Shown here in pieces: positions 3,761 to 61,594 of a stretch of DNA of 64,000 bases (position 1 is its first letter; the number at the start of each line of letters is the position of its first letter). Source of the stretch: a bacterium UBP2_UBA2255 (GTDB taxonomy: Bacteria > Edwardsbacteria > AC1 > EtOH8); NCBI GenBank assembly GCA_002347565.1, contig DDXR01000049.1, positions 42,302-106,301 on the forward strand. The letters run 5' to 3'. The translations under genes were made by a program, and so were the position numbers. The notes below the pieces were generated by a model. It made no database searches. It was not told where the DNA came from and was given only the letters and a program-made list of their open reading frames with translations.

Positions 3761-4690
3761 ATGAGACATCGCATCATTGTTGTCGCATCGATAGCCTTGA
3801 TGCTCGTCCTGGCCGTGCCGGCGTTCTCCCAGAAGACGATCATCCCCCAGATCGGCCTGGACTGGACCCGGGAGCGACCGGCGATCAAGGTGCAGGTGCT
3901 GGGCCAGGTGCGCAACCCCGGGCTCCACACCCTGCAGGCGTACGACCGGCTGGCCAGCGCCGTGGGCGCGGCCGGCGGGCCGAACGAGCAGGCGTCGATC
4001 CGCTCGGTGATCCTGATGCGCGACGGCAAGGCGATCGATACGCTCGACCTGTACCAGTACATGACCCAGAACGACCAGTCCCAGAACCCCGAGGTCAAAG
4101 ACGGGGACATCGTGTTCTTTCCCCTGGCCACCAACATGGTCACGGTCTTCGGCCAGGTGTTCAAGCCGGGGAAGTACGAGATCAAGCCGGGCGAGCGGCT
4201 GATGGACCTGGTCATCATGGCCGGCGGTTTCACGCCATTCTCGACCCGCGAGGACATCAAGGTCCAGAACATAGCCCGGCCGGACAGCGTGATAAGCATC
4301 AACGTCAAGCGGTTCGCCCTGGACCGCGACCCGGCGTTGAACATCGAGCTCAAGGCCGGCGACATCGTTACCGTGCCGACCACCCCGACCACCGTTACCG
4401 TGGTGGGACAGGTGCAGAAGGGCGGCACCTTCCCGTACGAGCCGGGAACGCTGCTGTCGTACTACCTGGGCATGGCCGGCGGGTACGCCGAGCGGGCCAG
4501 CACCGGGAACATCCGCATCAACCGCTGGGGCGGCAAGACGGTCAAGGGCAGGGAGAGCACCATCATGGAGCCGGGCGACGTGGTTGTGGTGGGGGAGATG
4601 CAGATCAAGGGCTGGCGCGACTACATCAACCTGATCGCCCAGGTGGCGACCACGGGTTTCATTGTATGGCAAGTTGCACGGGTACAATAG
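3761..4690 (+). CDS. SLBB-domain polysaccharide export protein (Wza/KpsD-like)
   Basis: Signal peptide MRHRIIVV..AFSQ; three SLBB repeats (V.VLGQVRNPG, VTVFGQVFKPG, VTVVGQVQKGG, each followed by AGG); alternative start at 3737. Confidence 0.85.
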   Translation: MRHRIIVVASIALMLVLAVPAFSQKTIIPQIGLDWTRERPAIKVQVLGQVRNPGLHTLQAYDRLASAVGAAGGPNEQASIRSVILMRDGKAIDTLDLYQYMTQNDQSQNPEVKDGDIVFFPLATNMVTVFGQVFKPGKYEIKPGERLMDLVIMAGGFTPFSTREDIKVQNIARPDSVISINVKRFALDRDPALNIELKAGDIVTVPTTPTTVTVVGQVQKGGTFPYEPGTLLSYYLGMAGGYAERASTGNIRINRWGGKTVKGRESTIMEPGDVVVVGEMQIKGWRDYINLIAQVATTGFIVWQVARVQ

Positions 4691-4698
4691 GAGGGACT

Positions 4699-5898: not shown

Positions 5899-5920
5899 TG
5901 CGACTGGAAGTACAATCGCC

Positions 5921-7282: not shown

Positions 7283-7289
7283 TATTGCG

Positions 7290-9793: not shown

Positions 9794-9797
9794 CGCT

Positions 9798-10742
9798 ATG
9801 GCGAATCATGCGACGGTTATAACAGTCTATCATGATGGGATGCCTGCGCTGCTCCAAATGATCGCAAGCGTCTACACACACCACGCGTTGATTGCTGATG
9901 TGATCATCGTGAATAACTCTAACGAAAGAATCGATCATCTGTCTCAGAAGAGGCACGGCGCGCCGTTCCGGGTCCGCATCATCGAGTCAGGCCGTAACAT
10001 CGGATTCGGTGCCGCGAACAACCTCGCACTACGCAGGACCCAGACCGATTACGTGCTGTTGCTAAACCCTGACGCGCAATTAACCGGTGGATTTCTAGAA
10101 GCCGCGATAGTCATGATGGACGAACGACCGGAGATAGCGGCGGTAGGCCCGAAACTGGTCGATTTCTATGGCAACCCTCATGCATCCGCGTTCACTTCCC
10201 CTTCCTGCGCATCGTACTTTATCGATGCGTTCGCGCTGGGACGCTTTGTCGATAGAAGGCGTACGCCCGCGCGCGAAATCAACCTCTGCGGTTACCTGTG
10301 CGAGACAGCTGATTGGCTGTGTGGCGCAGCGGTGGTCCTCCGGCGAAAAGTTCTCGACCAGATAGGGAGGTTCGATGAAGACTATTTCCTGTATTATGAA
10401 GACACCGACCTGTTCATGCGCATCCGAATGAACGGATCAGTTGTGATGCATTGCCCCCAGTTTATAGTGCGGCACGTTGGCCGGAACGAGGATGGGCTTT
10501 ATTGCGACAAGTTCAATTCAAGCACACGGATCGTGCACCATAGCAGAAGCGTGCTGACATATTGGCGTAAGCACGGCCGACAGCAAATGCCGATCGTTCG
10601 GGCTATCTTGTGCGCCAGCTCCATCTTCAAGTTTTGGACATGGGCGTTGTTGATGCTGATCTCGAGAAAGACTGGATTCACGGCTGTGCGCCAGCGCCTG
10701 CGGGGGTATGCCGAAGCCGCTGCGATCGCCTTGTTCGAATGA
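9798..10742 (+). CDS. Glycosyltransferase family 2 (rhamnosyltransferase-like)
   Basis: NIGFGAANN, LLLNPDA, FDEDYFLYYEDTDL. Confidence 0.88.
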   Translation: MANHATVITVYHDGMPALLQMIASVYTHHALIADVIIVNNSNERIDHLSQKRHGAPFRVRIIESGRNIGFGAANNLALRRTQTDYVLLLNPDAQLTGGFLEAAIVMMDERPEIAAVGPKLVDFYGNPHASAFTSPSCASYFIDAFALGRFVDRRRTPAREINLCGYLCETADWLCGAAVVLRRKVLDQIGRFDEDYFLYYEDTDLFMRIRMNGSVVMHCPQFIVRHVGRNEDGLYCDKFNSSTRIVHHSRSVLTYWRKHGRQQMPIVRAILCASSIFKFWTWALLMLISRKTGFTAVRQRLRGYAEAAAIALFE

Positions 10743-10870
10743 TACACCCATAAAAAGCCCACGTCATTGTTCTGGAATACGTGCCCGTTTGGGAAATCTG
10801 CAAACGACACGAGCGAAGATACCTATGGTTTTTCGGCTGTAGTGCGCCACCAGCCTATAGCAGTATAGCT

Positions 10871-11267
10871 ATGATAGTGATCGACGCCCGGAAAAACTGC
10901 GATTCCGGTATAGGCATCTAGCTGCGTAGCCTCATCGACCATCTTAATGGCCGGCACGATCTGACCGTTCTGATGGCTCGCGATATGGTGTTGTCGGACA
11001 AGTTCGCGGAAACGTACATATATTCTCGTCAGCAGCCAACCCAACACCATGAAGACGTATTGAAATAATGTGGAAGTGCTCGGTCTGCGATGTGTTTATC
11101 TTACCATGCAACAACATCCCGTTGCTGACAATGCCGACGAGGCGGCTGATCGTGTTCATTCAGGATATCCAGCATCTGCCGGCGAGCGCTGGGTATGGGC
11201 CGCAAAACAGGCGTGTGCTAGAATCATGATCAACTTGTTATTCCCGTTGGTCTTTGCCAAAGGGTAA
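10871..11267 (+). pseudogene. Decayed GT4 glycosyltransferase, paralog of the 12505 gene
   Basis: MIVIDARKNCDSGIGI*LRSLI aligns without gaps to MIAFDARMSERSGIGSYVRNLL; TAG at 10919-10921 replaces Tyr; the span is too short for a full GT4; 3' limit uncertain. Confidence 0.65.
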
Positions 11268-11289
11268 CCGCTTGAATGGATACAGTAAA

Positions 11290-12153
11290 ATGAACGCGAA
11301 TATGAATGACCCATGCATCGCTTGTAAAAGCAAATATTACAGAGTGGTTTTTAACGAATTTGGGATTGATATAGTTCAATGCAAATGCTGCGGCCATTTG
11401 TTCTCAACATTCCCGGGTGATCAAAACTACAACGGTTATTTCGGTGAGCAACAGATCGAATCATGTAAGCAATTCTGGTGGGACGATGCGCATCGCGATA
11501 TGTATGCTGACTTCTACCGACGATTTATAAACAAGAAAACAGGTACATTGCTGGATGTCGGCTGTGGCCTGGGCTATTTTGTCAAAAATATGTCAGTAAT
11601 ACCGTGCTGGGAGGTCTACGGTTGTGAAATATCTCGGGTAGCAGTAGCCTATGCCCGCAACAAACTTGGACTCAAGAACATTTATGAGGGGAAAATAGAG
11701 GAAATTGATTTCGGGTGCAGGACCTTTGATATCATAACACTGTGGGATGTTATTGAACACATTCCGAATCCCTATCCTCTTCTTGTCCGAATCTATTCGT
11801 TACTCAAGCAGGGAGGCATGCTATTCCTTCACACCCCCAATGCCCGCATCCAGTTGCCGAAAGCACGGATGAAACAGCTGATCATGCGCAGAAACCCGCA
11901 CGCCCATTTTCTTGAGGCAAAAGACCACATGAACATCTATACCGACAAATCGATATCTGCCGTACTCGGACGAAGTGGTTACATCTCGGTACAATTTCTG
12001 CATCTTAAACCATTGCAGAGTGTCGCTGGCAGTCGGAATGCTCTATTCGTCATCATCAAGAACTTATGGGCGTCTCTCTCAAGAATAATATACGTTTTAT
12101 CGAAGAGACGAATCAACATCGGGAATTTGTTCGTCGTCGCGTATAAACAATAG
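11290..12153 (+). CDS. Class I SAM-dependent methyltransferase with N-terminal Cys cluster
   Basis: CIAC...CKCCG; LLDVGCGLG; FDIITLWDVIEH; visibly AT-rich. Confidence 0.85.
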   Translation: MNANMNDPCIACKSKYYRVVFNEFGIDIVQCKCCGHLFSTFPGDQNYNGYFGEQQIESCKQFWWDDAHRDMYADFYRRFINKKTGTLLDVGCGLGYFVKNMSVIPCWEVYGCEISRVAVAYARNKLGLKNIYEGKIEEIDFGCRTFDIITLWDVIEHIPNPYPLLVRIYSLLKQGGMLFLHTPNARIQLPKARMKQLIMRRNPHAHFLEAKDHMNIYTDKSISAVLGRSGYISVQFLHLKPLQSVAGSRNALFVIIKNLWASLSRIIYVLSKRRINIGNLFVVAYKQ

Positions 12154-12504
12154 CGAACGATTATCCCATCAGCTCAGGAACACCCGGGGAAAGCCATTTA
12201 CGGTCAGTTCGACTTCTCTCGATGACCGGGAATACGCACCCCGAGCGGAGTCGAGAAATGCAGTAACGTGCCATCCTGAATATATGGGATAATCACTCAA
12301 TAGAGATATGCCACCCGCAGGCTATTTCTTCTGTTCGCCGCGGCGGCATCGGATGGTCGGTTTGATGAAGAAGCACGAGAGTTACAACTCAATGAACTAC
12401 AATTCTCTTGATATCCGGTTGCAGGTTATACATAGCGCCACGAAATAGTAATGACAAGCTAGTTCTATAAAAGAAATGCAGTTTAAAAAAGTGATGGTGC
12501 CGGC

Positions 12505-13602
12505 ATGATCGCCTTTGACGCAAGAATGTCAGAGCGTTCTGGTATCGGTTCGTATGTGCGAAACTTGTTGGCACAATTCGCGGCAATGGACCGGCCGCCA
12601 AAGCTGACCGTGATCGGTGACCAAGATATCCACCGCTACTGGCGGCGACCGATTGTCTGCCGTAGCCCGATATACAGTATTCAGGAGCAACTGTCTATTC
12701 CAGTGGTGGCGCATAATTGCAACGTCTTTCATGCGCCGCATTACAACGCCCCGCTGCTGTTCCGCGGCCGTCTGGTCGTGACTATCCACGACCTCAATCA
12801 TCTCACGTTTTATGATGAATTGCCGACCATCGCCCACAAACTGTATGCCCGTCTGATGATGACGTTAGCCGTCCGGCGGGCCGACCACATCATGACGGAT
12901 TCCGAGTGGACACGGCGCGACCTCCTCCGACGATGGCCCGACGCAGCGACGAAGACGGAGGTTGTACATAACGGTATTGATCCACAATTGCGACGGACGA
13001 TCGAACCGGCTGTGCCAGCGAAATATGGCATCACCAAACCATACGTTCTTTATCTGGGACTGCTGAAACGGCATAAAAACATCACGCGACTGATCGAAGC
13101 TTTCCTGGCGGCCCAAGACGAATTGAAGGGTGAGTTCCAATTGGCCATCGCGGGAGATCCGACCAGCGACGATATCGGCCTTCGTGATTTTATCGTGCGA
13201 CGGCGATCATCCGAAATCGTACGGTTGATAGGATTCATTGCGCCGGGTGACATCGCCCCGTTGTATAGCGGCGCGAAGGTGTTCGCCTTCCCATCGCTGG
13301 CCGAGGGCTTCGGCTTGCCGCCGCTGGAGGCGATGGCCTGTGGCACGCCGGTGATCGCCAGCAACGCGAGCTGCCTTCCCGAGGTCCTGGGCGGCGCACC
13401 GCGTTTCTTCGACCCCCGCGACGTGGCTGACATGGCGGCGTCGATCGTGTCCGCCGTCCGGGACGAAGCCTGGCGGTTCGCAGCCATCGAGCGCGGCTAT
13501 CGCACCACGGCCAAGTACCGGTGGGAGGATACGGCGCTGGCCTGCATACGCGCATATAGTGCAGCCGATACGACGGTTGCCAATGGGAGTGGTGGGCGGT
13601 GA
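12505..13602 (+). CDS. Glycosyltransferase family 4 (mannosyltransferase-like)
   Basis: DAR..SGIG.Y, VVTIHDL, HKN..RL, FPSLAEGFGLPPLEAMACGTPV. Confidence 0.9.
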   Translation: MIAFDARMSERSGIGSYVRNLLAQFAAMDRPPKLTVIGDQDIHRYWRRPIVCRSPIYSIQEQLSIPVVAHNCNVFHAPHYNAPLLFRGRLVVTIHDLNHLTFYDELPTIAHKLYARLMMTLAVRRADHIMTDSEWTRRDLLRRWPDAATKTEVVHNGIDPQLRRTIEPAVPAKYGITKPYVLYLGLLKRHKNITRLIEAFLAAQDELKGEFQLAIAGDPTSDDIGLRDFIVRRRSSEIVRLIGFIAPGDIAPLYSGAKVFAFPSLAEGFGLPPLEAMACGTPVIASNASCLPEVLGGAPRFFDPRDVADMAASIVSAVRDEAWRFAAIERGYRTTAKYRWEDTALACIRAYSAADTTVANGSGGR

Positions 13603-14747
13603 CCCGCGAACGGAACAACCGGGTTTATAAATGGCTGGACGGACACATTGGACCGCCGATCATCGCGATGAAGGCAGCGCTTGATATGCGGCAACGGCCT
13701 TGCGATCAGCGTGTGTCCAACCGATCACCCAGGATCGCATTGGTGAAAACGGAATCCATAGGCGATACGTTGCTGACCGAACCGCTGATTAAAAGCATCA
13801 AACATGTCCATCCCGCGGGTGCGATCACGTACATCTGCATGTCGAACAACGTTGACGCGGTCAGGGGTCTGGATGGGATCGATGAGATCATCATCTTTGA
13901 TCTCGGGGCACCGCTACGATCGCTGTGTCGATTGACGAGGCTGCGACCGTTCGACGTGGTGATTGACTGCGGTTCCTGGGCCAGGATCAACAGCGTGATT
14001 GCAACCACAGTGCCCGCCGCATGCCGTGTGGGCTTCCGTACCGCCAGCATGCACCGGCACTATGCCTACGATATCGTCGTTGACCATGATTCCGGCATCC
14101 ATGAACTTGACAACTATCGCAACCTGCTACGGGCCGCCGGCATCACCCCGCAGCGGTCGGCACCGCGCTATGTCATCGGCCGGCAAGCTGCCGGGGCACC
14201 GGTGTTCCCGTTGCCGTCGCTGGGTGAATACGTCGTCCTGCACATTCATCCCGGCGGCGCCCAGCGGCATCTGAAGTGCTGGCCGGATGCCCAATGGATC
14301 GAACTGGGGAGGCGTCTGATCGGCGCCGGGATCCGCATCTATATTAGCGGCGGTCGCGGCGATGCCGTTGGTGCAGGGCGCATTGCGAACCTGATCGACG
14401 GCGTCCACTGCGCGTCGCTGGCTGGTCAGCTGTCTCTGGATCAAACCGCGCAGCTGATCGCGGGATCCCGTCTGCTGGTCACCGTTGACACCGGTATCAT
14501 GCACCTCGGAGCAGCCGTCGGGGCGAATGTCATCAGTCTACATGGACCGACCTCGCCACGACGGTGGGGCGGCATCGGCCGATCGGTCACGCCAGTTTGC
14601 ACGACGGCCAGCTGTGCCCCATGCATCAACCTGGGCTTCGATTCACCCTGTCGGCACGGCGGCTGCATGGACCTCATCACTGTTGATGCCGTGTTCACTC
14701 AGGCAGCCGAACACCTGAAACGCACCGGACGCGGACGGCCATCGTAG
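13599..14747 (+). CDS. Glycosyltransferase family 9 (heptosyltransferase-like)
   Basis: SIGD.LL..P, HPGG...KCWP, VTVDTGIMHLGAA.G...ISLHGPT. Confidence 0.87.
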   Translation: MTRERNNRVYKWLDGHIGPPIIAMKAALDMRQRPCDQRVSNRSPRIALVKTESIGDTLLTEPLIKSIKHVHPAGAITYICMSNNVDAVRGLDGIDEIIIFDLGAPLRSLCRLTRLRPFDVVIDCGSWARINSVIATTVPAACRVGFRTASMHRHYAYDIVVDHDSGIHELDNYRNLLRAAGITPQRSAPRYVIGRQAAGAPVFPLPSLGEYVVLHIHPGGAQRHLKCWPDAQWIELGRRLIGAGIRIYISGGRGDAVGAGRIANLIDGVHCASLAGQLSLDQTAQLIAGSRLLVTVDTGIMHLGAAVGANVISLHGPTSPRRWGGIGRSVTPVCTTASCAPCINLGFDSPCRHGGCMDLITVDAVFTQAAEHLKRTGRGRPS

Positions 14748-47984: not shown

Positions 47985-48014
47985 TTGACAGCACCAGCGG
48001 TTTTACGTTACAAT
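47985..48014 (+). promoter_or_regulatory. sigma70 promoter for tRNA-Leu
   Basis: TTGACA, 18 bp spacer, TACAAT. Confidence 0.65.
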
Positions 48015-48077: not shown

Positions 48078-48164
48078 GCCGGGATGGTGGAATTTTGGTA
48101 GACACGTACGTTTGAGGTGCGTATGGCGCAAGCCATGTGGGTTCAAGTCCCACTCCCGGCACCA
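48078..48164 (+). tRNA. tRNA-Leu (anticodon GAG)
   Basis: Acceptor stem GCCGGGA/TCCCGGC plus ACCA; anticodon arm TACGT-TTGAGGT-GCGTA; long variable arm TGGC-GCAA-GCCA; T arm GTGGG-TTCAAGT-CCCAC. Confidence 0.97.
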
Positions 48165-48270: not shown

Positions 48271-49233
48271 ATGACCTTCGTTGACCTGATCATCGAGCGC
48301 CATTCGTGCGACCACGCGCTGCAGCAGGCGGTCGCCCTTATCAACGCGCGGCGGTACCGCCAGGCCATCCCCATTCTGGATGCGCTCCACCGCCGAGAGC
48401 CGCAGGGCTGCATCCAGAGCAGCGAGGTGGTGCAGTTCTACCTGATCGAGTCGCGCATGGCGCTGGCCCGCCGGGCGGCGCAGCGACGGGCGCTGGCCGA
48501 GGCGATCCGCGAGTACGGCGCGGCCGCGAAGCTGGCGCCGCGGTATGCCGACCTGCGCCATGCGCTGGGGATGATCGAGTACGAGCGGAGGCGCTACGCG
48601 GCAGCCGCCGCCGAGTTCCGCCGGGCGCTGCGGATCAACCCCCGGTACCAGGCGGCGCGCGTCCAGCTCGGGCTGACGATGCTCCGGCAGCGCCGGTACC
48701 GGGCCGGCCTGCGCCTGTTCGCCGGCCTGGCGCGCGACTGCAGCCTGGTCGACCAGGAGCGATACGACCGCGCCGTGGCCGCGGCGCAACGCCGCCGGTA
48801 CCGGGAGGCCGAGGGCGGTTTCGCGGCGGCGTTCCGGTCGAGGCCCGACCGGGGAAGGGCCCTCTGCGCCATGGGCCAGGACGCCTATCGGGAGAGCCGT
48901 TACGACGAGGCCATCCGCCATTTCCGGCAGGCGCAGCGGCTGGCACCGGGCTATGCGGATGTTTACAACAATCTCGGCGCCTGCTACAGCCGGAAAGGGA
49001 ACTGGGGCAGGGCGGCCCGCTGTTTCGCCATGGCGGCATCGCTGGCTCCGCGCTTCACCCGCGCCTGGCTCAACCTGGCGTATGTCTGTGACCGGCTGGG
49101 CGACCGCGAACGGGCGGCGAGGGCGGCCCGTAGCGCCCTGCGGCTGGACCCGGCGAACAAGCTGGCGACCGCCATCCTGCGCCGCGACGGCGCAACCAGG
49201 ACGGCGGCACTGAAGGACCGGCAGCATGGCTGA
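48271..49233 (+). CDS. Tetratricopeptide repeat protein
   Basis: Repeated TPR motifs (P.YADLR..LG, AL.INP.Y..A...LG, P.YADVYNNLG). Confidence 0.85.
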   Translation: MTFVDLIIERHSCDHALQQAVALINARRYRQAIPILDALHRREPQGCIQSSEVVQFYLIESRMALARRAAQRRALAEAIREYGAAAKLAPRYADLRHALGMIEYERRRYAAAAAEFRRALRINPRYQAARVQLGLTMLRQRRYRAGLRLFAGLARDCSLVDQERYDRAVAAAQRRRYREAEGGFAAAFRSRPDRGRALCAMGQDAYRESRYDEAIRHFRQAQRLAPGYADVYNNLGACYSRKGNWGRAARCFAMAASLAPRFTRAWLNLAYVCDRLGDRERAARAARSALRLDPANKLATAILRRDGATRTAALKDRQHG

Positions 49234-49882
49234 GTTCAAGGATTACTACGCAGTCCTGGGTGTCGGCCGCACGGCCGCGGAGCAGGAGATCAAGGCCGCC
49301 TACCGGCGGCTGGCGGTGAGGCTCCATCCCGACAAGAACCCGGCCGAGAGCAAGCAGGGATTCGCCAGCAGCCAGTTCCAGGACGTCAACGAGGCCTATC
49401 ATACCCTGGTCGACCGCAGAAAGCGAGACGCCTACAACAAGCAGCTGCTGGCCCGCCAGACCGGCATGTCCGACGGTCACACGTACGAGGCCAACCAGGC
49501 CGAAATGGTGTACCGCCAGGGGGTCAAGGCCTACAACGAACAGAATTTCAAGCGGGCGGTGGAGTACTTCAAGGCCGCAGTCAGGCTCAATCCCAAAAAG
49601 GCGTCCTACTACGACCGGCTGGGGATCGCCATCGTGAAATCCGGCGGATCGATCGAGGACGCCCGCGCCCAGTGCGAAAAGGCCCAGCAGATGGAGATGT
49701 ACAACCCCGAGCACTACCTGTCGATGGGCATCATCTACCAGCTGGCCGGGCTGGGGGACAAGGCCCGGGAGCAGTTCCGGGAGGCCCTCAAGTGGGATCC
49801 CGCCAACGCCGCCGCCAAGCAGCGCCTGGAGCAGCTCGGCCGGAGCAAGAAGGGGTTCTTCGGCAAGATGTTCGGCGGGTGA
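49226..49882 (+). CDS. J-domain (DnaJ) protein with C-terminal TPRs
   Basis: DYYAVLGV...EIKAAYRRLA..LHPDKN with intact HPD; TPRs; C-terminal KKGFFGKMFGG amphipathic tail. Confidence 0.9.
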   Translation: MAEFKDYYAVLGVGRTAAEQEIKAAYRRLAVRLHPDKNPAESKQGFASSQFQDVNEAYHTLVDRRKRDAYNKQLLARQTGMSDGHTYEANQAEMVYRQGVKAYNEQNFKRAVEYFKAAVRLNPKKASYYDRLGIAIVKSGGSIEDARAQCEKAQQMEMYNPEHYLSMGIIYQLAGLGDKAREQFREALKWDPANAAAKQRLEQLGRSKKGFFGKMFGG

Positions 49883-49940: not shown

Positions 49941-50318
49941 ATGGACATGGCGAACTACGAGCAGCGGTTGAAGGAGCTGGTTGACAGCATCCCGGGTGCG
50001 GCGTCGGCCAACCTGACCGGCATCGACGGCATCGGGATCGCGGCCAGCAGTCTCGATCCGACGCTGGACCCGACGCTGGCCGACGCCGAGTTCGCCACCA
50101 TGCTGGCCACCGCCAACCGCGCCGCGGGCAACCTGCAGGTGGGTGACATCTCCGAGCTGATCTTCGCCACCGACAGGATCATGATCATCCTCAAGATGGT
50201 GGGCCAGGATTTCTACCTAGCGGTGGGGCTGCCGGCGGCCGCCGGCAACCTGGGGATGGCCCGGCTACAGATGCGCTGGGCGGTGGACGATTTCGCCAAG
50301 ATGCTGTACGCCGCGTGA
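49941..50318 (+). CDS. Roadblock/LC7 (MglB-like) domain protein
   Basis: L..LVDSIPGA..A.L.G.DGI.IA, LQVGDI.ELI, NLG.AR pattern. Confidence 0.82.
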   Translation: MDMANYEQRLKELVDSIPGAASANLTGIDGIGIAASSLDPTLDPTLADAEFATMLATANRAAGNLQVGDISELIFATDRIMIILKMVGQDFYLAVGLPAAAGNLGMARLQMRWAVDDFAKMLYAA

Positions 50319-50328
50319 GGAGGCTTTT

Positions 50329-50673
50329 GTGACGAACCACCAAAATGGATACCACGACCAGGCGTCCGAGATCATCAGGTCGCTGGCCGAGCGCGAGCGC
50401 GAGCTGTCCCGTTCGCTGGAGTCGGCCGAGGCCGAGGCCCGGCAGGCGATCGAGCGGGCCGAGGCGGCTGCGTCCGGCATTCGCGCAGCCGCTGCCGAGT
50501 CCGAGCGCCGCCTGGCGGCCGAGCATGCCGGGAGCTTGGCGGCGCTGGCAGATCAGATCGCCGCTGCCCGGGCGGCCCGGGCCGGGCAGGAGGCCGAGGC
50601 CCTGGCGGCCGCTGCCGCGGCCCGGATGGAGGCGGCCGTGTCGGAAGTCGTCAGGCGCGTGCTGCCGGAGTAG
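50329..50673 (+). CDS. V/A-type ATP synthase subunit G/H (peripheral stalk)
   Basis: Ala/Glu/Arg coiled coil ending AV..VV..VLP; directly upstream of subunit I as in Thermus. Confidence 0.8.
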   Translation: MTNHQNGYHDQASEIIRSLAERERELSRSLESAEAEARQAIERAEAAASGIRAAAAESERRLAAEHAGSLAALADQIAAARAARAGQEAEALAAAAAARMEAAVSEVVRRVLPE

Positions 50674-50679
50674 CCGCCG

Positions 50680-52578
50680 ATGATCGTCCCCATGCTCAGG
50701 GTGCTGGTGGCTGGTCCCAAACCGCTGATGGCCGCCGTGATCGAGACCATCCAGCGGCAGGGGCGGGTCCACATCGCGGCCGCGCGGGGCCAGGAGCAGG
50801 GCGTTTGCGCCGGCGGGCTGGCCGAGGCCGAGGCCGGGCGCCGGCAATCGGTCGAACGGGCCGCTTCCGAGATCGACGGCCTGCTGGCCCTGCTTGGGTT
50901 CCGGGGAAGGCCGGCACGACAGACCGGGGAACCGGACTGGGGCGCGCTGGAGGCCGGGCTGCGCGAACGCCAGGAGCGCGTGCGGGCGCTGGTGCGGCGG
51001 CGGCTGGAGCTGGAGGATGAGCTGGCGCTGATAGCCAGTTACCAGCAGGCGTTCGAGGCGCTCTCGCCGCTGCTGTCGCGGCTGGAGGGGAGCGCCAGGC
51101 TCCGGGCCTTCGGGTTCATCATCAAGGGGACCGATGCCACGGCTGCCGAACCGCTGCGCCGCGAGCTGGGCAGGGCCACGAGCGGCCGGTGCGAGGTGTT
51201 CGCCCAGGCGCTGGGCGACGGCCGGGTCGCCGTGCTGGCGGCGCACCACGCCGGGGACACCGACCGGGTGCGGGGGTTCTTCGCCAAGCTTGGCGTCAGC
51301 GAGCTGAAATTGCCGTCGACCGTTACCGGCCTGCCGATGGCAGAGGCGGTGCGGCAGCTCAAGGGAAAGCTGCGCGACCTGCCCGGGCAGATCCGGGCCG
51401 CGCAGGAGGATATCGGCAGCCTGGCCGGGCAGTGGGGGCCGGAGCTGGCGGGGCTGCGCCTGCTGGCGGGCGACGTGCTGGCGAGGCTGGCCGTGCGGGC
51501 CCAGGTCGGGGAAAGCCGGTTCACCTTCCTGCTGCAAGGTTACCTGCCGCAGGACGACCTGCCCGGCCTCCGCGACGCCCTGCGCGCCGCCTACCAGGAC
51601 CGGGTCACGGTGCAGACGATAGAGATCGGACACCGCGACGCGGCGCAGGTCCCGGTGATGCTGAAGAACAACCGGCTGGTCAAGCCGTTCGAGATGATGC
51701 TGTCGATCTTCAACCCGCCGCGCTACGGGACTGTCGACCCCACGCCGTTCATCGCGTTCTTCTTCCCGCTGTACTTCGGCTTCATCGTCGGCGACCTCGG
51801 CTACGGCCTGGTGATGCTGGCGCTGGCGCTGGCGCTGCGCTGGAAGCTCGGTCAGCGGCCGTTGGTCAGGCCGCTGACCACCATTTTCGCGCTGTGCGCC
51901 GCCTGGACCGCCGCGTTCGGCGTCGTCTACGGCGAGCTGTTCGGCGACCTGGGCGAGCACATGCACTGGCTGCATCCCATGGCCGACGCGGTCAACCGCA
52001 TGAGGCCGGAGTCGCTGATGCCGCTGTTCTGGTCATCGATCGCCGTCGGCGCGTTCCAGGTGATGGCCGGGTTCGGGATCATGCTCTACCAGGGTCTGAG
52101 GCATCGCGACCGGCACCATATCCTTGAGCCGCTGGCCTTCGTCATCGGCATCGCCGGCGTGGCCGGCTTCGCAGCCTCCTGGATGTTCGGGGTCATCCCG
52201 TCCTCCTTCATGGCGCCGTCGCTGGCCCTGCTGGTCGCCGGCGCCGGCCTGCTTGGGTGGCTGGCCGGCGTGGCAGGGCCGATCGAGATCTTCGGCGCGG
52301 TCGGCAACATTCTGTCCTTCGCCCGTTTGTTCGCGATCGGATTGTCCGCGGCATATCTGGCGTATGCGGCCAACCTGATCGGCCGCACCATCGGCGGCAT
52401 TCCGGGGATTCTGGTGGCGGCCCTGGTAGTGCATCCGCTGTTCTTCGCCCTGGGCCTGATCAGCCCCATCATGCAGTCGTTCCGTCTCCAGGTCGTGGAG
52501 TTCTTCACCAAGTTCAAATACCACGATTATCCCGGCAAACAATACAAACCATTCAAAACCACAGGAGAGACCCCATGA
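50680..52578 (+). CDS. atpI: V/A-type ATP synthase subunit I (a)
   Basis: P.YG..DPTP...FFP..FG...GD.GYG; GNILSFARL.AIGL (essential Arg); RLQ.VEFF.KF. Confidence 0.95.
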   Translation: MIVPMLRVLVAGPKPLMAAVIETIQRQGRVHIAAARGQEQGVCAGGLAEAEAGRRQSVERAASEIDGLLALLGFRGRPARQTGEPDWGALEAGLRERQERVRALVRRRLELEDELALIASYQQAFEALSPLLSRLEGSARLRAFGFIIKGTDATAAEPLRRELGRATSGRCEVFAQALGDGRVAVLAAHHAGDTDRVRGFFAKLGVSELKLPSTVTGLPMAEAVRQLKGKLRDLPGQIRAAQEDIGSLAGQWGPELAGLRLLAGDVLARLAVRAQVGESRFTFLLQGYLPQDDLPGLRDALRAAYQDRVTVQTIEIGHRDAAQVPVMLKNNRLVKPFEMMLSIFNPPRYGTVDPTPFIAFFFPLYFGFIVGDLGYGLVMLALALALRWKLGQRPLVRPLTTIFALCAAWTAAFGVVYGELFGDLGEHMHWLHPMADAVNRMRPESLMPLFWSSIAVGAFQVMAGFGIMLYQGLRHRDRHHILEPLAFVIGIAGVAGFAASWMFGVIPSSFMAPSLALLVAGAGLLGWLAGVAGPIEIFGAVGNILSFARLFAIGLSAAYLAYAANLIGRTIGGIPGILVAALVVHPLFFALGLISPIMQSFRLQVVEFFTKFKYHDYPGKQYKPFKTTGETP

Positions 52579-52919
52579 AGAAGTTCCTGGCGATCGTGAT
52601 GCTGTCCGTCATCGCGATGACCTTCGCCTCGGTGGCGTTGGCCCAGCATGCCGCACCGGCCGCGGAACAGCAGAAGGCGGACTCCCCGGCCAAGCCGCTG
52701 GACAACATCGTGATCTGGAAGGCCCTCGGCGCGGCGCTGGCCATCGGCGCCGCCGCTTTCGCCACGGCCTGGGCCCAGAGCAAGATCGGATCGGCCGCGG
52801 CCGGCGCCATCGCCGAGAAGCCGGAGATCGGCGGCGTGATGATCGTGCTGGAGGCCCTGCCCGAGACCATCATCATCCTGGGCTTCGTGATCGCCATCAT
52901 GATCGTGGGGATGAAGTAG
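52575..52919 (+). CDS. atpK: V/A-type ATP synthase subunit K (c), single hairpin with signal peptide
   Basis: RBS AGGAGA; signal MKKFLA..VALA; AQSKIGSAAAGAIAEKP; LPETIII.G. Confidence 0.93.
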   Translation: MKKFLAIVMLSVIAMTFASVALAQHAAPAAEQQKADSPAKPLDNIVIWKALGAALAIGAAAFATAWAQSKIGSAAAGAIAEKPEIGGVMIVLEALPETIIILGFVIAIMIVGMK

Positions 52920-52968
52920 CCGCTGCGCCGGGCCCCGGAACCGGCGGCATCTGGCACGATCTGACGAT

Positions 52969-53541
52969 ATGAATTCCGAACTACTGAAGGTCATCGAGGC
53001 CGAGGCCGCGGCCGAGCGCCAGCGGATCACGGACGCGGCCCGGGAGCGGGCCGGCGAGATCATCTCCTCGGCCGAGACCGCGGCCCGGCGGCTGCGCGAC
53101 AGCGGCGAGCGCGCCCGGGATGAGCAGGAACGCGCGGTCAGGCTCAAGACGGCCGCGGCCGCGGAACTGGCGGCATCGGCGCTGCGGCTGGAAGCCAAGC
53201 GCCGGGTGCTGGATTCGGTGTTCGACGCCGCCCGTCGGCGTCTGGCGCAGCTGTCCGGCCCGGAGTACCGGCGCGTCCTGAAGTCGCTGATCGCCGAGGC
53301 GGCGGCGGGCTTCGATGGGCAGTTCCGGCTGCGGGTGCGCCGGCAGGACGCCAAGCCGGCCGCCGAGATACTGAAGGAGTTGGGTCTGGAGGCGGAGGCC
53401 GAGGCCGAGGGCGCGGATGACGGCGGCGTGGTCGCGTCCGACCCCCAAGGCCGGATGATGGTCTGCAACAGGTTCGCCGACCGCCTGGAGCGCGCCCGTC
53501 CCGAGCTGCTGCCCGCGCTGTCGCGCATCCTGTGGGGATGA
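52969..53541 (+). CDS. atpE: V/A-type ATP synthase subunit E
   Basis: N-terminal coiled coil; GGV....G...N.F..RL.......L...LWG. Confidence 0.88.
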   Translation: MNSELLKVIEAEAAAERQRITDAARERAGEIISSAETAARRLRDSGERARDEQERAVRLKTAAAAELAASALRLEAKRRVLDSVFDAARRRLAQLSGPEYRRVLKSLIAEAAAGFDGQFRLRVRRQDAKPAAEILKELGLEAEAEAEGADDGGVVASDPQGRMMVCNRFADRLERARPELLPALSRILWG

Positions 53542-53544
53542 GCG

Positions 53545-54603
53545 ATGCCGTCGGACTACGGGTACATCAACGCCCGGATCAAGGGATGGCACAGCCGCCT
53601 GCTGACGGCCGGCGCAGTGACCGAGATCGCCGACCTGCCTGATTTTCCGGCTTTTCTGAAATGGATGGCCGCCGGTCCGTACGCGGCCGATTGGCAGCTG
53701 GCCCGTGCCCGGTTCGAGGGATTGGAAGCGGTCGAGCAGGCGCTGGAAGCGAATTTCGGCCAGACCACCCGGCGGTTGTTGGCGGTCTCGGACGGCGCCC
53801 CGCGCCGCCTGATCGGGATCATGCTGCGGCGCTGGGACCTGGCCAACCTCAAGACGGTGGTCCGTGGCATCGCCCGCCAGCACGGTTCGCAGGAGATCGC
53901 CCGCAACCTGTGGCCGGCCGGCAACCTGGTGATGGTCCGCCTGAGGGAGCTGGCCCAGCAGCGCGACCTGCGCGGCGTGGCGGACGTGCTGGCCACCTGG
54001 CGCGACCCGCTGGCGCAGCCCCTGATTGAATGCCTGGCAGGGTTCGACCGGGACCACGACCTGGTGCCGGTCGAACTGGCGCTGGACCGGTTCCATTTCC
54101 GCGACTCGCTGCGGCGGCTGCGAGGCCCGGAGAGCAACCGCAGCCTGATGGCGGGCCTGCTGCGGCGGGAGATCGACCTGGCCAATGCCAAAACGGCCAG
54201 GAGGCTGGCCGGTCAGGCCGCGGATCAGGCGCGGGATCCCCGGGCCTATGTGATCGACGGCGGCGAAGTCATCGATGCCGAGGCCGTGGCCGAATTGCTC
54301 GATCCCAGGACGCGCAGCCGCCGGCTGCGTGCCCTGCGGGCATCGCCCTACCACGGCTATCTGGCCGGCACCGGCGACCCGGTCCGGCTGGAGGATGAAC
54401 TCGACCATTCGTTCTGGCGCCACTGCGCCCGGCTGTACCGGGCCCGGCCGCTGGCGATCGACGTGGCCGTCGGCTTCATCTGGCGGAAACAGTACGAGCT
54501 GGTCAACCTGCGCCTGCTGGCCCGGTCCAAGTTCTACGGGCTGCCGCCGGAAGAGATACGCAGCCAGCTGTTCCTGGACGTTGCGGGCGGCCGCTGCGGC
54601 TGA
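53545..54603 (+). CDS. atpC: V/A-type ATP synthase subunit C (d)
   Basis: YGYINARI.G..SRLL, RWDL.NLKT..R, EID..N, K..E..NLR..AR. Confidence 0.92.
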   Translation: MPSDYGYINARIKGWHSRLLTAGAVTEIADLPDFPAFLKWMAAGPYAADWQLARARFEGLEAVEQALEANFGQTTRRLLAVSDGAPRRLIGIMLRRWDLANLKTVVRGIARQHGSQEIARNLWPAGNLVMVRLRELAQQRDLRGVADVLATWRDPLAQPLIECLAGFDRDHDLVPVELALDRFHFRDSLRRLRGPESNRSLMAGLLRREIDLANAKTARRLAGQAADQARDPRAYVIDGGEVIDAEAVAELLDPRTRSRRLRALRASPYHGYLAGTGDPVRLEDELDHSFWRHCARLYRARPLAIDVAVGFIWRKQYELVNLRLLARSKFYGLPPEEIRSQLFLDVAGGRCG

Positions 54604-54675
54604 CGACGGCTGGCGGTTTCCGCGCCGCATCCCGGGCATCCACCCAACCCCACCACGACAGCGAAAGGGGACGGT

Positions 54676-55884
54676 ATGAACCGCATCGCACTCGGCGCCA
54701 TTGCCCTGGTCCTGACGGCCGGACTGGCCGGCGCGGCGCCGGAAGCGCCGCCGGCCGCGCCGCCCGGTGAGGCGTCTGCCGCCGGACTGACGGCGGTCGA
54801 CACTCCCAACGACGAGGGGCGGTCGATCACCGTCACCTGGGCCCGGTCGCCCCGGGACATCGGCGATGCCGCCGTGTTCAAGGGCTACCAGATCCTGCGG
54901 GCCGACCACGCCGATGGGCCGTTCGCCGAGGTCGGGTTCGTCATCGGCGGCAAGACGGAGTTCCGCGACAACGTGGCCGAGGGCGCGGCGCACTGGTACC
55001 GCGTGCGCGCCGTGGCCGGCAGCGATTCATCGGAAACGGGGACGGCCGGTCCGGTCCGGGCGTCGGCCCAGTGGTTCGACGCCGGCCGCAGCAACGTGCT
55101 GATCGTGACCGTCCTGCTGGCGTTCCTGATGATCTGGTACATCGAGCGGGCCAAGAAGGGCGAGGAGCTGTTCATCCGGAAGATCCACGGCCTGGACGCC
55201 ATCGACGAGGCGGTGGGGCGGTCCACCGAGCTGGGCAAGCCGGTGCTGTTCTCGTTCGGCCTGGGCGAGATCAAGGACATCGTGACCGTGGCCGCGCTGT
55301 CAATCCTGCGCCAGGTCGCGGTGCGCTGCGCCCAGCACGGCACCGAGCTGCTGGTCCCGAACTGGGACCCGCTGGTGATGGCCGCGGCCCAGGAGACCAT
55401 CCAGCAGGCCTACTCCGAGCCGGGCCGGCCCGACCTGTACAAGGAGGGCAACGTCAGCTTCCTGACCTCGGATCAGTTCGGGTACGCCGCGGGCGTCGAC
55501 GGCATGATGATCCGGCAGAAGCCGGGGGCGGTGTTCTTCATGGGCTACTTCTATGCCGAGGCCCTGCTGATGTCGGAGACCGGCCACTCGGTGGGCGCGA
55601 TCCAGATCGCCGGGACCACGGCGGTCACCCAGCTGCCGTTCTTCATCGCCTCCTGCGACTACACCCTGATCGGCGAGGAGATGCTGGCTGCCAGCTGCTA
55701 CCTGAAGCGCGATCCCCAGCTGCTGGGGTCGATCAAGGGCGAGGATTTCGTCAAGGCCATCCTGATCGTCGGGTTCGCGGCGCTGGCCGTGGTCGGCACC
55801 GCCGGCGCCCTGCTGGCCGGCGCCGGGCGTCCCTGGCTGTCCGGCGTGTTCCAGGCCATCATCCAGTGGTTCGTGACCGCATGA
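54676..55884 (+). CDS. Uncharacterised membrane protein: signal peptide, FN3-like domain and DUF6754-like domain
   Basis: DTPND.G..I.V.W...Y.I.R...Y.V.AV (FN3-like); TM; IRKI.GLDAIDEAVGR.TE.GKP, QIAGT...QLPFF...CDY.LIGEE (family name recalled, not searched). Confidence 0.75.
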   Translation: MNRIALGAIALVLTAGLAGAAPEAPPAAPPGEASAAGLTAVDTPNDEGRSITVTWARSPRDIGDAAVFKGYQILRADHADGPFAEVGFVIGGKTEFRDNVAEGAAHWYRVRAVAGSDSSETGTAGPVRASAQWFDAGRSNVLIVTVLLAFLMIWYIERAKKGEELFIRKIHGLDAIDEAVGRSTELGKPVLFSFGLGEIKDIVTVAALSILRQVAVRCAQHGTELLVPNWDPLVMAAAQETIQQAYSEPGRPDLYKEGNVSFLTSDQFGYAAGVDGMMIRQKPGAVFFMGYFYAEALLMSETGHSVGAIQIAGTTAVTQLPFFIASCDYTLIGEEMLAASCYLKRDPQLLGSIKGEDFVKAILIVGFAALAVVGTAGALLAGAGRPWLSGVFQAIIQWFVTA

Positions 55885-55921
55885 CGCGCGCGTCACTGAT
55901 CGAAATGAAGGAGCGGCGCCC

Positions 55922-56554
55922 ATGAAAAAAGAGATCCCATTGGCCATCACCTTCCTGACCGGCCTGATCATCGTGGTCACGTTCTTCATCCCCCACCAGC
56001 CGCTGGGGACGATGCAGCAGCGGCTGCTGATCTGGTACTCGATCGTGCTGGGGTTCACCATGCTGCTGGGCGTGGACAGCTTGCTGCGCAGCAACCTCAA
56101 GCGGCTGGTGGGGCGCACCCCGGGATGGCCGTACGCCGCAGTGCTGCTCGCCGGGTTCGCGTTCACCCTGGCGGCCGGGATCTACAACTGGGCCACCACC
56201 AGGTCGCTGCTGACCCTGGGGTCGCCGTTCATGTTCGTCTACACCTTCGTGATCGTGCCCCTGCAGGCGACCATGTTCGCGGTGCTGGCGTTCTTCATCG
56301 CGTCGGCCGCCTACCGCGCCTTCCGGGCCCGCACCCTGGAGGCGACCCTGCTGCTGGTCACCGCCGCCATCGTCATGATCGGGCGGGTGCCGGTGGGGGC
56401 CGAGCTGTGGGACAAGCTGCCGGTCCTGGCCGACTGGATCATGGAGGTCCCCCAGATGGCGGCCAAGCGGGGCATCGTCATCGGCGTGGCCCTGGGGACC
56501 ATCGCCATGTCGCTGCGGGTGATCCTGGGCCTGGAACGGACCTACCTGTCATGA
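55922..56554 (+). CDS. Uncharacterised membrane protein (~6 TM), subunit 2 of the module
   Basis: RBS AAGGAG; PL.ATMF..LAFFIASAAYRAFRAR; RGI.IG.ALG. Confidence 0.8.
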   Translation: MKKEIPLAITFLTGLIIVVTFFIPHQPLGTMQQRLLIWYSIVLGFTMLLGVDSLLRSNLKRLVGRTPGWPYAAVLLAGFAFTLAAGIYNWATTRSLLTLGSPFMFVYTFVIVPLQATMFAVLAFFIASAAYRAFRARTLEATLLLVTAAIVMIGRVPVGAELWDKLPVLADWIMEVPQMAAKRGIVIGVALGTIAMSLRVILGLERTYLS

Positions 56555-56576
56555 AGCGCAGCAGAGGAGAACGACG

Positions 56577-57398
56577 ATGAGATTCTTCGAGCGGATCGCC
56601 GCCATCGACCGGCGGCTGATCTACCTGGCGCTGGCGCTGTCGGTGCTCATCCCCCTGCTGTTCAAGATGGTGCTCCCGACCCGCGTCTCCGAGCCGGTGC
56701 GGGCCGCCTACCGGTCGATCGATGACCTGCCCGAAGGTTCCGTGGTGATGATCTCGGTCGACTACGACGCCTCGTCGGCGCCGGAGCTGCAGCCCATCTA
56801 TCTCGGCATCCTGCAGCACTGCTTCGCCAAGAAGCTCAAGGTGCTGGTGCTGGGGCAGTGGGTGATGGGGACCCCCTTCGGCGAGCTGGGCTTGGGCCGG
56901 ATCGCGCCGCTGTACGACGCCGTCTACGGCGTCGACTACGTCAACCTGGGGTACCGGCCCGGCTACCGCGCCCAGATGGTGGGGCTGGGCCGCGAGATTC
57001 GCGACTTCTTCGCGGTCGATTCCCGCGGCATCACCCTCGACAGCTTGCCGATGATGGCCGGGGTCCACAATTACAACCAGATCGACCTGCTGGTGGGTCT
57101 CGAGGCCGGCCAGGCCGGCGACGAGTGGATCCAATTCGCCGGCGCCCGCTACGGCGTCGACATCGTGATCGGCGCCACCGGCGTGGTGGCCCCCGACAAG
57201 TTCCATTACCTGCAGGCCCGGCAGATCCGCGGGCTGATCGGCGGCCTGCAGGGCGCGGCCGAGTACGAGACCCTGATCGGCAAGCCGGGCGCCGCCATCG
57301 CCGGCATGGTCGCCCAATCCTGGGCGCACCTCCTGCTGCTGGCGTTCATCGTCCTGGGCAACGTCGGATATTTCGTGATGCGGAGGGCCAAGCCATGA
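56577..57398 (+). CDS. Uncharacterised membrane-anchored protein, subunit 3 of the module
   Basis: N- and C-terminal TMs around a soluble domain; YGVDYVNLGY.PG; GLIGGL.GAAEYE.L. Confidence 0.8.
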   Translation: MRFFERIAAIDRRLIYLALALSVLIPLLFKMVLPTRVSEPVRAAYRSIDDLPEGSVVMISVDYDASSAPELQPIYLGILQHCFAKKLKVLVLGQWVMGTPFGELGLGRIAPLYDAVYGVDYVNLGYRPGYRAQMVGLGREIRDFFAVDSRGITLDSLPMMAGVHNYNQIDLLVGLEAGQAGDEWIQFAGARYGVDIVIGATGVVAPDKFHYLQARQIRGLIGGLQGAAEYETLIGKPGAAIAGMVAQSWAHLLLLAFIVLGNVGYFVMRRAKP

Positions 57399-58018
57399 CG
57401 CAGATCATCGGCACCTGGATCGCGGCCGGGCTGACCCTGGCCATCTTCTCCTTCCTCTACAAGGACAACCCGTTCTACAAGGTGGCGGAGCACCTCTACG
57501 TCGGTGTCTCGGCGGCCTACGCCGTGCTGTACGCCTGGGCCAACGACGTCTACCCGATGCTGGTCGAACCGATGTTCCTGGGCCGGGGCGCCGTCACCAC
57601 GGCCGACCGCTGGATCCTGCTGGTGCCGCTGCTGTTCGGCCTGATGATGCTGGCGCGGTGGGTGCCGAGGATCGCCTGGCTGTCGCGCTGGTCCATCGCA
57701 CTGACGGTAGGCATCGCGGCGGGCCTGGGCATCACCGGCCAGATCCAGGGCATTCTGCTGCCGCAGGTGGCCGGCACCCTGGTGCCGCTGACATCGGCCA
57801 ACAACGTTCTGATGGTGGCCGGCGTCATCGCCACGCTGGTGTACTTCTATTTCTCGATCGCCCAGAAGGGCGCGGTCAAAGTGGGCAGCCGGCTGGGCAT
57901 GGTGTTCATCATGGTCGCGTTCGGCGCCTCGTTCGGCTATACGGTGATGGCCAGGATCTCGCTGTTGATCGGGCGCCTGCAGTTCCTGGTGTTCGACTGG
58001 CTCCACGTGGTCAAGTGA
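57395..58018 (+). CDS. Uncharacterised membrane protein (~6 TM), subunit 4 of the module
   Basis: ATGA overlap; TL.IFSFLYKDNPFYK.AEH.YVG; FGASFGYTVM.R.SLLIGR..FL. Confidence 0.8.
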   Translation: MTQIIGTWIAAGLTLAIFSFLYKDNPFYKVAEHLYVGVSAAYAVLYAWANDVYPMLVEPMFLGRGAVTTADRWILLVPLLFGLMMLARWVPRIAWLSRWSIALTVGIAAGLGITGQIQGILLPQVAGTLVPLTSANNVLMVAGVIATLVYFYFSIAQKGAVKVGSRLGMVFIMVAFGASFGYTVMARISLLIGRLQFLVFDWLHVVK

Positions 58019-58052
58019 CGGCCGCCCCAACCGTCGAGAGGAGGATCCTGCG

Positions 58053-58355
58053 ATGAACGACCTGACCGCTGTCAAGGGGGTGCGGGCCTGGGCGGTGTTC
58101 GCCAACGACGCGCCGGTGGAGGGCGAGGCCAAGGGCGAGCTGGGGGACAAGGCGGGCGAGATCGAGCAGTTCTGGGTGAACGCGGCCTCGGTGATCGCCA
58201 GCAACTTCCGGCTGGGCCAGCTGCGCGAGGTGGCCGTGGCCGGCCCCGACCGGCAGGTGCTGATGCTGCTGGCCGGCGACCGGACCGTGGTGTGCGAGGT
58301 CGATCCCGCCGCCGACTGGAAGGCGCTGGCGGGCGAGATCCGGAGGAAGATGTAG
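58053..58355 (+). CDS. Roadblock/LC7-like small protein
   Basis: L..VKGV....V...D; LGQL.EV.V.G....VL....G; 100 aa; RBS GAGGAGG. Confidence 0.65.
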   Translation: MNDLTAVKGVRAWAVFANDAPVEGEAKGELGDKAGEIEQFWVNAASVIASNFRLGQLREVAVAGPDRQVLMLLAGDRTVVCEVDPAADWKALAGEIRRKM

Positions 58356-58356
58356 C

Positions 58357-58905
58357 ATGGCACTTGCAGACGCGATAGCTGCTGGCAGGGTGGCGGGCCT
58401 CAAGGGCGCGTTCCTGGTGCCGGCCGGCGGCGACATCCAGGCGCAGGGCTGCGACCAGTCGGCCGCGACCCCCAGCGCCGAGCTGGCCCGCCAGATCCAG
58501 GACATCGTCGGCCTGCCGACGCTGGACACCGTGTGGCTCGCCGCCGAGGGCGGCATCGCCGGCCTGCGGCTGGCCGCCGGGGCGACGGCCGGGGTGCTGC
58601 TGGGGCCGGACGGGGCGGCCGGGCCCGCCCGCAAGCTGCTGGACGCGTTGCTGGCAGCCCCGGCGGCCGGAACGGGCGGCGGCGACGCCATCAACCAGAT
58701 CCGCAAGGTCGCCACCGAGTACCTCACCGACTTCGCCGAGACCGCGCTGATGATCCAGATCAAGCAGTCGGGTCTGGACGAGAAGAACCCCAGCCCCGAA
58801 AGCCTGGCCAAGCTGGCCGGCGGCCTGGAGAAGGCGGCGCTGATGATCATCGGCCCCTCGCGAGCCAAGGAGATGGGCGAGAGGCTGAAGAAGGCGATAT
58901 CATGA
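58357..58905 (+). CDS. Degenerate roadblock-like domain fused to a C-terminal helical domain
   Basis: V.GLKGAFLV..GG.I, GL.TLDTVWL; C-terminal INQIRKVATEYL..FA...L.KLA..LEKAA...IG. Confidence 0.55.
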   Translation: MALADAIAAGRVAGLKGAFLVPAGGDIQAQGCDQSAATPSAELARQIQDIVGLPTLDTVWLAAEGGIAGLRLAAGATAGVLLGPDGAAGPARKLLDALLAAPAAGTGGGDAINQIRKVATEYLTDFAETALMIQIKQSGLDEKNPSPESLAKLAGGLEKAALMIIGPSRAKEMGERLKKAIS

Positions 58906-58998
58906 TGCGGGACGCGGATCGACGCAGATCATATCGATCGGTTGTCCCGGCCGTCCGAACAGCGGATGTCTGCGTGAATCAGCGTCCGGAAGTGTCGG

Positions 58999-59322
58999 AT
59001 GAATAGGCTGGCCGTCATCACCGACAGCGGCACCGCCACCGGGTTCCGGATGGCGGGGGTGGACACCTTCGAGGTCGCCTCCGAACCGCAGCTCCAGGCC
59101 AAGCTGGCCGAGCTGATCGCGACGGGCGACTACGGGCTGATCGCCGTCAACCAAGACCTGGCGGCGGACCTGGGCGAGGAGGTCGACCGCATCATGAAGA
59201 ATCGCGCCCTGCCGGTGATCCTGCCGTTCCCGGTGCCCAAGGGCGGGACGGTGGAGAGCGGCGAGGCCTACCTCAATAAGCTGGTCAAGGACGCCATCGG
59301 GTTCTACGTCAAGCTGAAGTGA
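58999..59322 (+). CDS. atpF: V/A-type ATP synthase subunit F
   Basis: AVI.D..TATGFR.AGV, YGLIAV, LPV.LP.P, Y...LV..AIGF..KL. Confidence 0.92.
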   Translation: MNRLAVITDSGTATGFRMAGVDTFEVASEPQLQAKLAELIATGDYGLIAVNQDLAADLGEEVDRIMKNRALPVILPFPVPKGGTVESGEAYLNKLVKDAIGFYVKLK

Positions 59323-59807
59323 CCGCGGTGAAATCGATGACGTTCCTGGGATACCTCTTCGTCGCGTGCTGCTTCGCCGGTTGCAGCAAGGACCCGGCCG
59401 CGCCTGGAGCGACCCCCACGTTGGACACTGCCACGCTGACGGATTCCCTGCATGCAGTCGCCATCGGCATGTCGCGCCGGGAATGCCAGATCGACATCCA
59501 GCTGGCGTATTCGATCAATCGTTACCCGCTGATCAAGGCCGGCTCCGACTCGGATATGGTGACCGTCTACCTGCACAACGGCAAGGCGATATCGACCGAC
59601 ACCCCATACAACGCTGGCGCGATCGTCAGGCAGGATTACCGGAACGGTGACCTCCTGGCGAGATCGGTGCAAGGGGGATGGGGCTCGGACACGACGGCAC
59701 ACGTCCTGATGGCTTCCGATACCCTGACCACCATCGACAGTGCCACGGTCGACGTGTGGTGGTGGTTTGATGGCGGCCGCCAGGTGCACCACCGGCTTTT
59801 CCCGTAG
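59319..59807 (+). CDS. Hypothetical lipoprotein
   Basis: Lipobox FAGC after a hydrophobic stretch; GTGA overlap with the subunit F stop (alternative start 59337). Confidence 0.6.

Positions 59808-59851: not shown

Positions 59852-61594
<1,743 letters not shown>

Follow-up and report, generated by a model that had tools for sequence, protein, structure and literature searches.

We consider it probable that the three roadblock genes found in a V/A-ATPase gene cluster of the Edwardsbacteria genome UBP2_UBA2255, here called rb1, rb2 and rb3, encode proteins with two distinct origins, likely adaptors in an MglA/MglB polarity network, and that these genes likely came to lie among the ATPase genes by rearrangement rather than for control of the ATPase. 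The window, the whole stretch of 64,000 nucleotides that was analyzed, is C64:42302-106301 of this source genome (G000, 94.5% complete); coordinates beginning with a contig name are contig positions, all others are window positions, and every feature described from position 47985 of the window onward is on the forward strand. Comparisons drew on a phylum set of 19 Edwardsbacteria genomes and an outside set of 132 genomes. An original prediction, made from the sequence alone, had proposed that the three proteins regulate or localize the ATPase in the manner of eukaryotic Ragulator. What it observed is confirmed, including the spacing: rb1 ends 10 nucleotides before the gene for subunit G, and rb2 and rb3, separated by a single nucleotide, lie between a membrane module and subunit F. 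Its interpretation is partly supported.

Three roadblock-fold proteins

The genes rb1 (49941..50318, 125 residues), rb2 (58053..58355, 100 residues) and rb3 (58357..58905) are all real, and each product has the roadblock fold (helix-strand-strand-helix-three strands-helix) that had been proposed for it. The evidence is a sequence match to MglC for rb1 and structural models for rb2 and rb3, together with, for rb2, the parent protein rbA described below, which passes the Pfam Robl_LC7 cutoff. Against that same model rb1 scores 22.1 bits, slightly below the 23-bit cutoff, and rb2, a degenerate member, has no Pfam match; the Atlas model of rb2, of moderate confidence (pLDDT 0.65), fits Robl_LC7 clusters with TM scores of 0.81-0.86. 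The rb3 model has a mean pLDDT of 82. Residues 1-107 form its roadblock domain, for which the top structure match is 3kye (Z 11.7, root-mean-square deviation 2.8, 106 residues aligned), followed by 9jue (Z 11.6) and then, at around Z 10, by chains from MglB, archaeal roadblocks and LAMTOR. Residues 108-181 make up a separate helical domain, absent from the original prediction, for which the Atlas offers a lead, and a lead alone, to DUF8082 (score 0.87). PDB sequence searches with rb2, rb3 and the module proteins m1 and m3 returned nothing meaningful, and NCBIfam holds no name for rb1, rb2 or rb3. Ratios of nonsynonymous to synonymous substitution rates (dN/dS), from four sequence pairs for each gene, were 0.05-0.19 for rb1, 0.07-0.22 for rb2 and 0.19-0.27 for rb3, indicating purifying selection on all three.

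An MglC-like protein before subunit G

The best PDB match of rb1 is MglC of Myxococcus xanthus (7CT3), with an E-value of 2.5e-11 from the single sequence; used as a profile, rb1 matches MglC at 7.9e-18 but MglB only at 0.035. D26 beside G27 is given as the signature of the orphan clade by McLoon et al. (PMC4719450), where MglC is also said to be without GTPase-activating protein (GAP) activity and F25 to vary in the family. Carreira et al. (PMC10329633) assign F25, D26 and I28 to the MglC surface that binds MglB, and K104, R106 and R110 to the surface that binds RomR. Like MglC, a member of the MglB_orphan1 clade, rb1 is an orphan roadblock in a genome with MglA and MglB, and it retains D26, G27, I28, R106 and R110 (D29, G30, I31, R108 and R112 in rb1 numbering), all five invariant in 10 of 10 sequences. 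It differs in having Ile (I28 in rb1 numbering) in place of F25, a site at which Phe occurs in only 33 of 150 homologues. The rb1 protein would homodimerize and dock on MglB through the D29/I31 surface, with no GAP activity.

The neighborhood also differs, since rb1 sits between a DnaJ-TPR gene and ATPase subunit G, whereas most homologues adjoin other genes. The rb1 profile finds matches in 42 genomes outside the phylum, and loci were examined for 40 of these, all but the two weakest; 35 of the loci span at least 10 kilobases (kb), and a few end at the gene. ATPase subunit genes are near the rb1 homologue in none of the 40. About 26 of them, judged by eye, continue into genes that we take to be aroQ-, efp- or accB/C-like. 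In the outside genome G132, a homologue (42%) of the DnaJ-TPR gene stands before that of rb1, at the end of a contig, and the ATPase H-I genes are on another contig with different genes upstream. The same order is seen in the window, where a TPR protein of 320 residues (48271..49233) is followed by the DnaJ-domain and TPR protein of 218 residues (49226..49882) that adjoins rb1 on its upstream side. Because ATPase genes are missing from all 40 outside loci, and because G132 repeats the DnaJ-TPR-rb1 pairing, rb1 is likely the end of this upstream cluster. The idea that TPR-type genes before outside mglC homologues correspond to RomY or SgmX found no support in the RomY preprint (10.1101/2022.03.17.484758) and was dropped.

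A roadblock pair copied from a PATAN cassette

The other two genes have a different source. Contig C37 carries a cassette in the order GlmL-like, biotin-lipoyl-like, DUF6754 module, lipoate ligase, DUF4388 (PATAN), rbA (C37:8414-9118), rbB (C37:9122-9859) and two small membrane genes, with no ATPase genes nearby. The rb2 protein aligns with the N-terminal domain of rbA (HHalign 97.4%, E 1.3e-11) and rb3 with the entire length of rbB, apart from a shorter linker (98.2%, E 5e-14); none of the three cross pairs that were run exceeds 10%, rb1 against rb2 giving 6%. Sequence comparison identifies rb2-rb3 as a shortened, same-order duplicate of rbA-rbB. The part lost in rb2 is the C-terminal domain of rbA, which is common to the PATAN protein (28% over 113 residues, E 1e-17; locus L218, C37:7273-9118). 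An association of PATAN genes with MglA and MglB has been described (PMC4316618), and the parent pair rbA-rbB is like the PATAN-associated MglB homologues discussed there in also standing directly after a DUF4388 gene; rb2-rb3 differ from that cassette in that its PATAN gene, its two membrane genes and the C-terminal domain of rbA have all been lost.

An rbB-type match occurs in all 19 phylum genomes and a full rb3 in 14, and the only rb3 homologues that carry an organism name, four of 38, are all from Edwardsbacteria. Five phylum genomes keep the ATPase and are missing the pair: G012-G015, which are 94-100% complete, and G018, at 87%. In G012-G015 the last module gene is followed directly by F, and genome-wide searches recover only rbA and rbB; these four, being kin, likely record one loss of rb2-rb3.

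The module that precedes the pair consists of m1 (54676..55884), with a signal-peptide-like start and a DUF6754 domain; m2 (55922..56554) and m4 (57395..58018), polytopic membrane proteins of no family; and m3 (56577..57398), in which a Rossmann-like domain is flanked by two predicted membrane helices. The m3 model (pLDDT 91) has only generic Rossmann-like structure matches, the best at Z 10.0 in a flat field, and m3 shows no detectable relationship to m1. The history of the module rests on an m1 tree of 36 sequences and on matching identity patterns of m2-m4. In that tree the window's clade Y is sister (97/97) to the second module of G018, which directly precedes lipoate ligase-PATAN-rbA-rbB, and rb2 and rb3 are found with clade Y only. 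In G012, G013 and G015 the module before F belongs to another paralogue, clade X (96/93), and G012-G015 (L055, L054, L067 in G014 and L053 in G015) have no such module at their GlmL locus; G011, of the same genus, keeps the clade Y module and the pair. The ATPase run of G018 is a plain G-I-K-E-C-F-x-x-A-B-D, with no module or roadblock.

The simplest reading of this history starts from an ancestral locus, still present in G018, that would have held GlmL-like, biotin-lipoyl-like, module X, module Y, lipoate ligase, PATAN, rbA and rbB. Module Y and a truncated copy of rbA-rbB would then have moved together upstream of F in the ancestor of the class, and one lineage would later have put module X before F and lost the pair; since G012, G013 and G015 carry the clade X paralogue there, the slot appears to have been refilled. 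The rb2 and rb3 proteins likely form a heterodimer, which may scaffold partners through the helical tail of rb3, at a cell pole or at module Y.

MglA and MglB in the source genome

The contig of the window also encodes an mglB-mglA pair (E 6e-35 for MglB, 3.7e-92 for MglA), at C64:19707-20801; its mglA lies 22 kb ahead of the window, and the pair is about 71 kb from rb1. The search of the genome for mglA that had been suggested yields three copies (C64:20226, C10:22866-23459 and one on C22), and mglA is present in all 19 phylum genomes. The earlier statement that the window contains no MglA-like GTPase is thus true of the window but misleading, given the pair on the same contig and the three copies genome-wide. 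Within four genes of rb1, rb2 or rb3 there is no mglA, and no GTPase is among their neighbors. PilB/PilT-family ATPases are also encoded in the genome. If rb1-rb3 are adaptors of this kind, the range of MglC-type roadblocks, and of those linked to PATAN, would grow by a phylum that has received little study and in which as many as three MglA GTPases occur. As separate observations, the mglA gene on C22 (in a region at about 8-31 kb) is accompanied by three roadblocks, two PATAN-TPR genes and a chemotaxis cluster, and three receiver proteins (C52:902, C66:48102 and C32:24228) have C-terminal parts that appear PATAN-like by eye.

Evidence for and against a link to the ATPase

Several observations weigh against assigning the three proteins to a polarity network and their position to rearrangement. 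K104 of MglC, on the RomR-binding surface, is Met in rb1, a residue found there in 8 of 150 homologues, and a RomR-like protein, the second partner of MglC, was not seen among the 17 of 23 receiver matches inspected. Of the three KRK residues, the MglB encoded on C64 has R115 and lacks K14 and K120, in our reading of the alignment. In position, rb1 is directly before G/I in 18 of the 18 phylum genomes that carry it, out of 19, and in 14 of 19 the pair rb2-rb3 is found before F. Both positions are explained by shared descent, although selection for co-expression may contribute as well. Finally, the rbA-rbB cassette is often without an adjacent module; because rbA-rbB persists in this form, the tie between pair and module is historical and not obligate.

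Beyond the phylum, the linkage was not recovered. Subunit F was found in 34 of the 132 outside genomes, 12 of which also have Robl_LC7 matches, and in none of these 12 is a Robl_LC7 match close to F, the only shared contig placing them about 410 kb apart; this survey relied on Pfam, which misses rb2 and rb3 themselves, so that degenerate roadblocks would escape it. Conservation of synteny, put forward as a check, holds within the phylum (18 of 19 genomes for rb1, 14 of 19 for rb2-rb3) and was not detected outside it, either in this survey or at the 40 outside rb1 loci. Among openly accessible papers, we found no publication on roadblock genes in a V-ATPase operon or on this arrangement in Edwardsbacteria. 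On the favored reading, the locus illustrates how accretion can yield a suggestive operon neighborhood.

The strongest alternative, although unlikely, has rb2 and rb3 serving in the cytoplasm as adaptors for the clade Y DUF6754 module, with this module in turn coupled functionally to the V/A-ATPase; the module could, for instance, be an assembly factor or a transporter driven by an ion gradient, and the roadblocks would then link the two indirectly. In 18 of the 19 phylum genomes a DUF6754 module stands just ahead of F, or of rb2-rb3-F where the pair is present, its slot was refilled by a clade X paralogue in three of them, rb2 and rb3 occur only with clade Y, and module and parent pair are neighbors again in the metagenome locus L124, which has the order module-PATAN-rbA-rbB-membrane genes and no ATPase gene within 11.6 kb. 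In metagenomes at large, however, the module seldom keeps such company: among 80 loci kept from 572 m3 matches, 42 of them at least 10 kb long, 78 are without ATPase genes and 76 without a detectable roadblock. The two loci with ATPase genes both have the window's order, at 67-74% identity, and roadblock-profile matches occur in four. Four further module copies in the source genome, three in tandem on C7 and one on C37, are away from the ATPase; in G017, unrelated genes come after C, and the module-rb2-rb3-F block, not joined to C, sits on a different contig; and G018 has its ATPase without the module. The secondary idea of the original prediction, a tie to the neighboring membrane module, is supported in that rb2 and rb3 belong with the module; a coupling of the module to the ATPase is proposed only in this alternative. 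DUF6754 matches occur in 113 of 401 genomes searched, the module in metagenome loci often follows GlmL-like and biotin-lipoyl-like genes, and we found no paper under the name DUF6754. This unstudied four-gene module, two different paralogues of which fill the slot before subunit F, is the better lead.

It is quite improbable that the Edwardsbacteria V/A-ATPase is wired to the MglA network, with MglC-like rb1 and an rb2-rb3 heterodimer docking either to the ATPase itself or to a DUF6754 membrane complex coupled to it, to set where or when it pumps, as a convergent counterpart of Ragulator. Were it true, bacteria would offer a simple model system for how roadblock proteins control a rotary ATPase.

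Ragulator is linked to the V-ATPase. It consists of two roadblock heterodimers on LAMTOR1 and recruits the Rags, according to PMC10933270. Three of its features recur in the window: the roadblock fold, two dissimilar roadblocks side by side, and closeness to a V-type ATPase, here in genome position only. Tight spacing with the ATPase genes, a position conserved across the class, purifying selection and the presence of LAMTOR chains among the fold matches of rb3 (Z 10.2 to 2zl1) could further suggest that rb1-rb3 form a Ragulator-like complex, bound to the V/A-ATPase and controlling its activity or its place in the cell. Bacterial and archaeal roadblocks, however, score as high or higher (Z 11.7 and 11.6) than the LAMTOR chains, which reach at most Z 10.2 at 8-15% identity and so do not rise above other roadblocks, and sequence searches with rb1, rb2 and rb3 gave no LAMTOR match. 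No Rag GTPase was found in the genome, only MglA matching Gtr1_RagA, and that below the cutoff; no LAMTOR1-type scaffold was recognized, no dedicated scaffold search having been made. With rb1 and rb2 of different origins and not close kin, the pair derived from a PATAN cassette and dispensable among close relatives (absent from five of the 19 phylum genomes, all five of which keep the ATPase), and the kin of rb1 apart from ATPase genes at all 40 outside loci examined, the proposed Ragulator-like regulation of the ATPase is not borne out and is highly improbable.

Locus layout

The run of genes after rb1 is G-I-K-E-C-[m1-m4 DUF6754 module]-rb2-rb3-F-lipoprotein-like-A-DHH-MazG-Zn finger-B. The Thermus-type V/A-ATPase operon has the order G-I-L-E-C-F-A-B-D; all subunits follow the same order here, and G018 has a near-plain form, but the window's cluster differs in its insertions at C-F, F-A, A-B and B-D. 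Subunit genes before the module are G (50329-50673), I (50680-52578), K/L (52575-52919), E (52969-53541) and C (53545-54603). Subunit F (58999..59322) starts 93 nucleotides after the end of rb3 and is followed by a variable passenger gene, lipoprotein-like and of no family (59319..59807); then come subunit A (59852-61594), the DHH, MazG-like and zinc-finger passengers, and the start of subunit B (63525), up to the window's end at 64000. Relatives carry differing, unrelated passengers at the F-A, A-B and B-D junctions, the mark of a porous operon. Small toxin-antitoxin-like gene pairs, identified by eye, also occur within the ATPase cluster, at A-B (L063, 7473-8190) and at rb3-F (L046, 4911-5371; G017).

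From the TPR gene onward, intergenic gaps range from -8 to 115 nucleotides. A forward-strand terminator scan of this run gave a single weak match, at 57829 within m4, and overall found six against 7.2 expected by chance; no credible terminator breaks the run, just as had been claimed. Co-transcription of the roadblock genes with the ATPase genes is likely, judging from this layout, in an operon that would readily take up passengers. A candidate sigma-70-like promoter (47985..48014), a possible start of the long transcript, has 11 of 12 consensus matches; one such site was found against 1.2 expected by chance, and it is hence weak alone. A tRNA-Leu (GAG) gene follows at 48078..48164.

Subunit B is split just beyond the window's end (63525 onward; C64:105826-107237) into frames of 353 and 162 residues, compared with about 470 residues in relatives, through either an assembly error or a frameshift. 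A second, divergent V/A-ATPase cluster is encoded on C34 at about 12.9-18.5 kb (L071), its subunit A 41% identical, and seven of the 19 phylum genomes have two subunit-A matches. At the other end of the window, positions 4001-14000 have a GC content of 0.49-0.59, against about 0.68, and carry surface-polysaccharide-like genes; this stretch was likely acquired.

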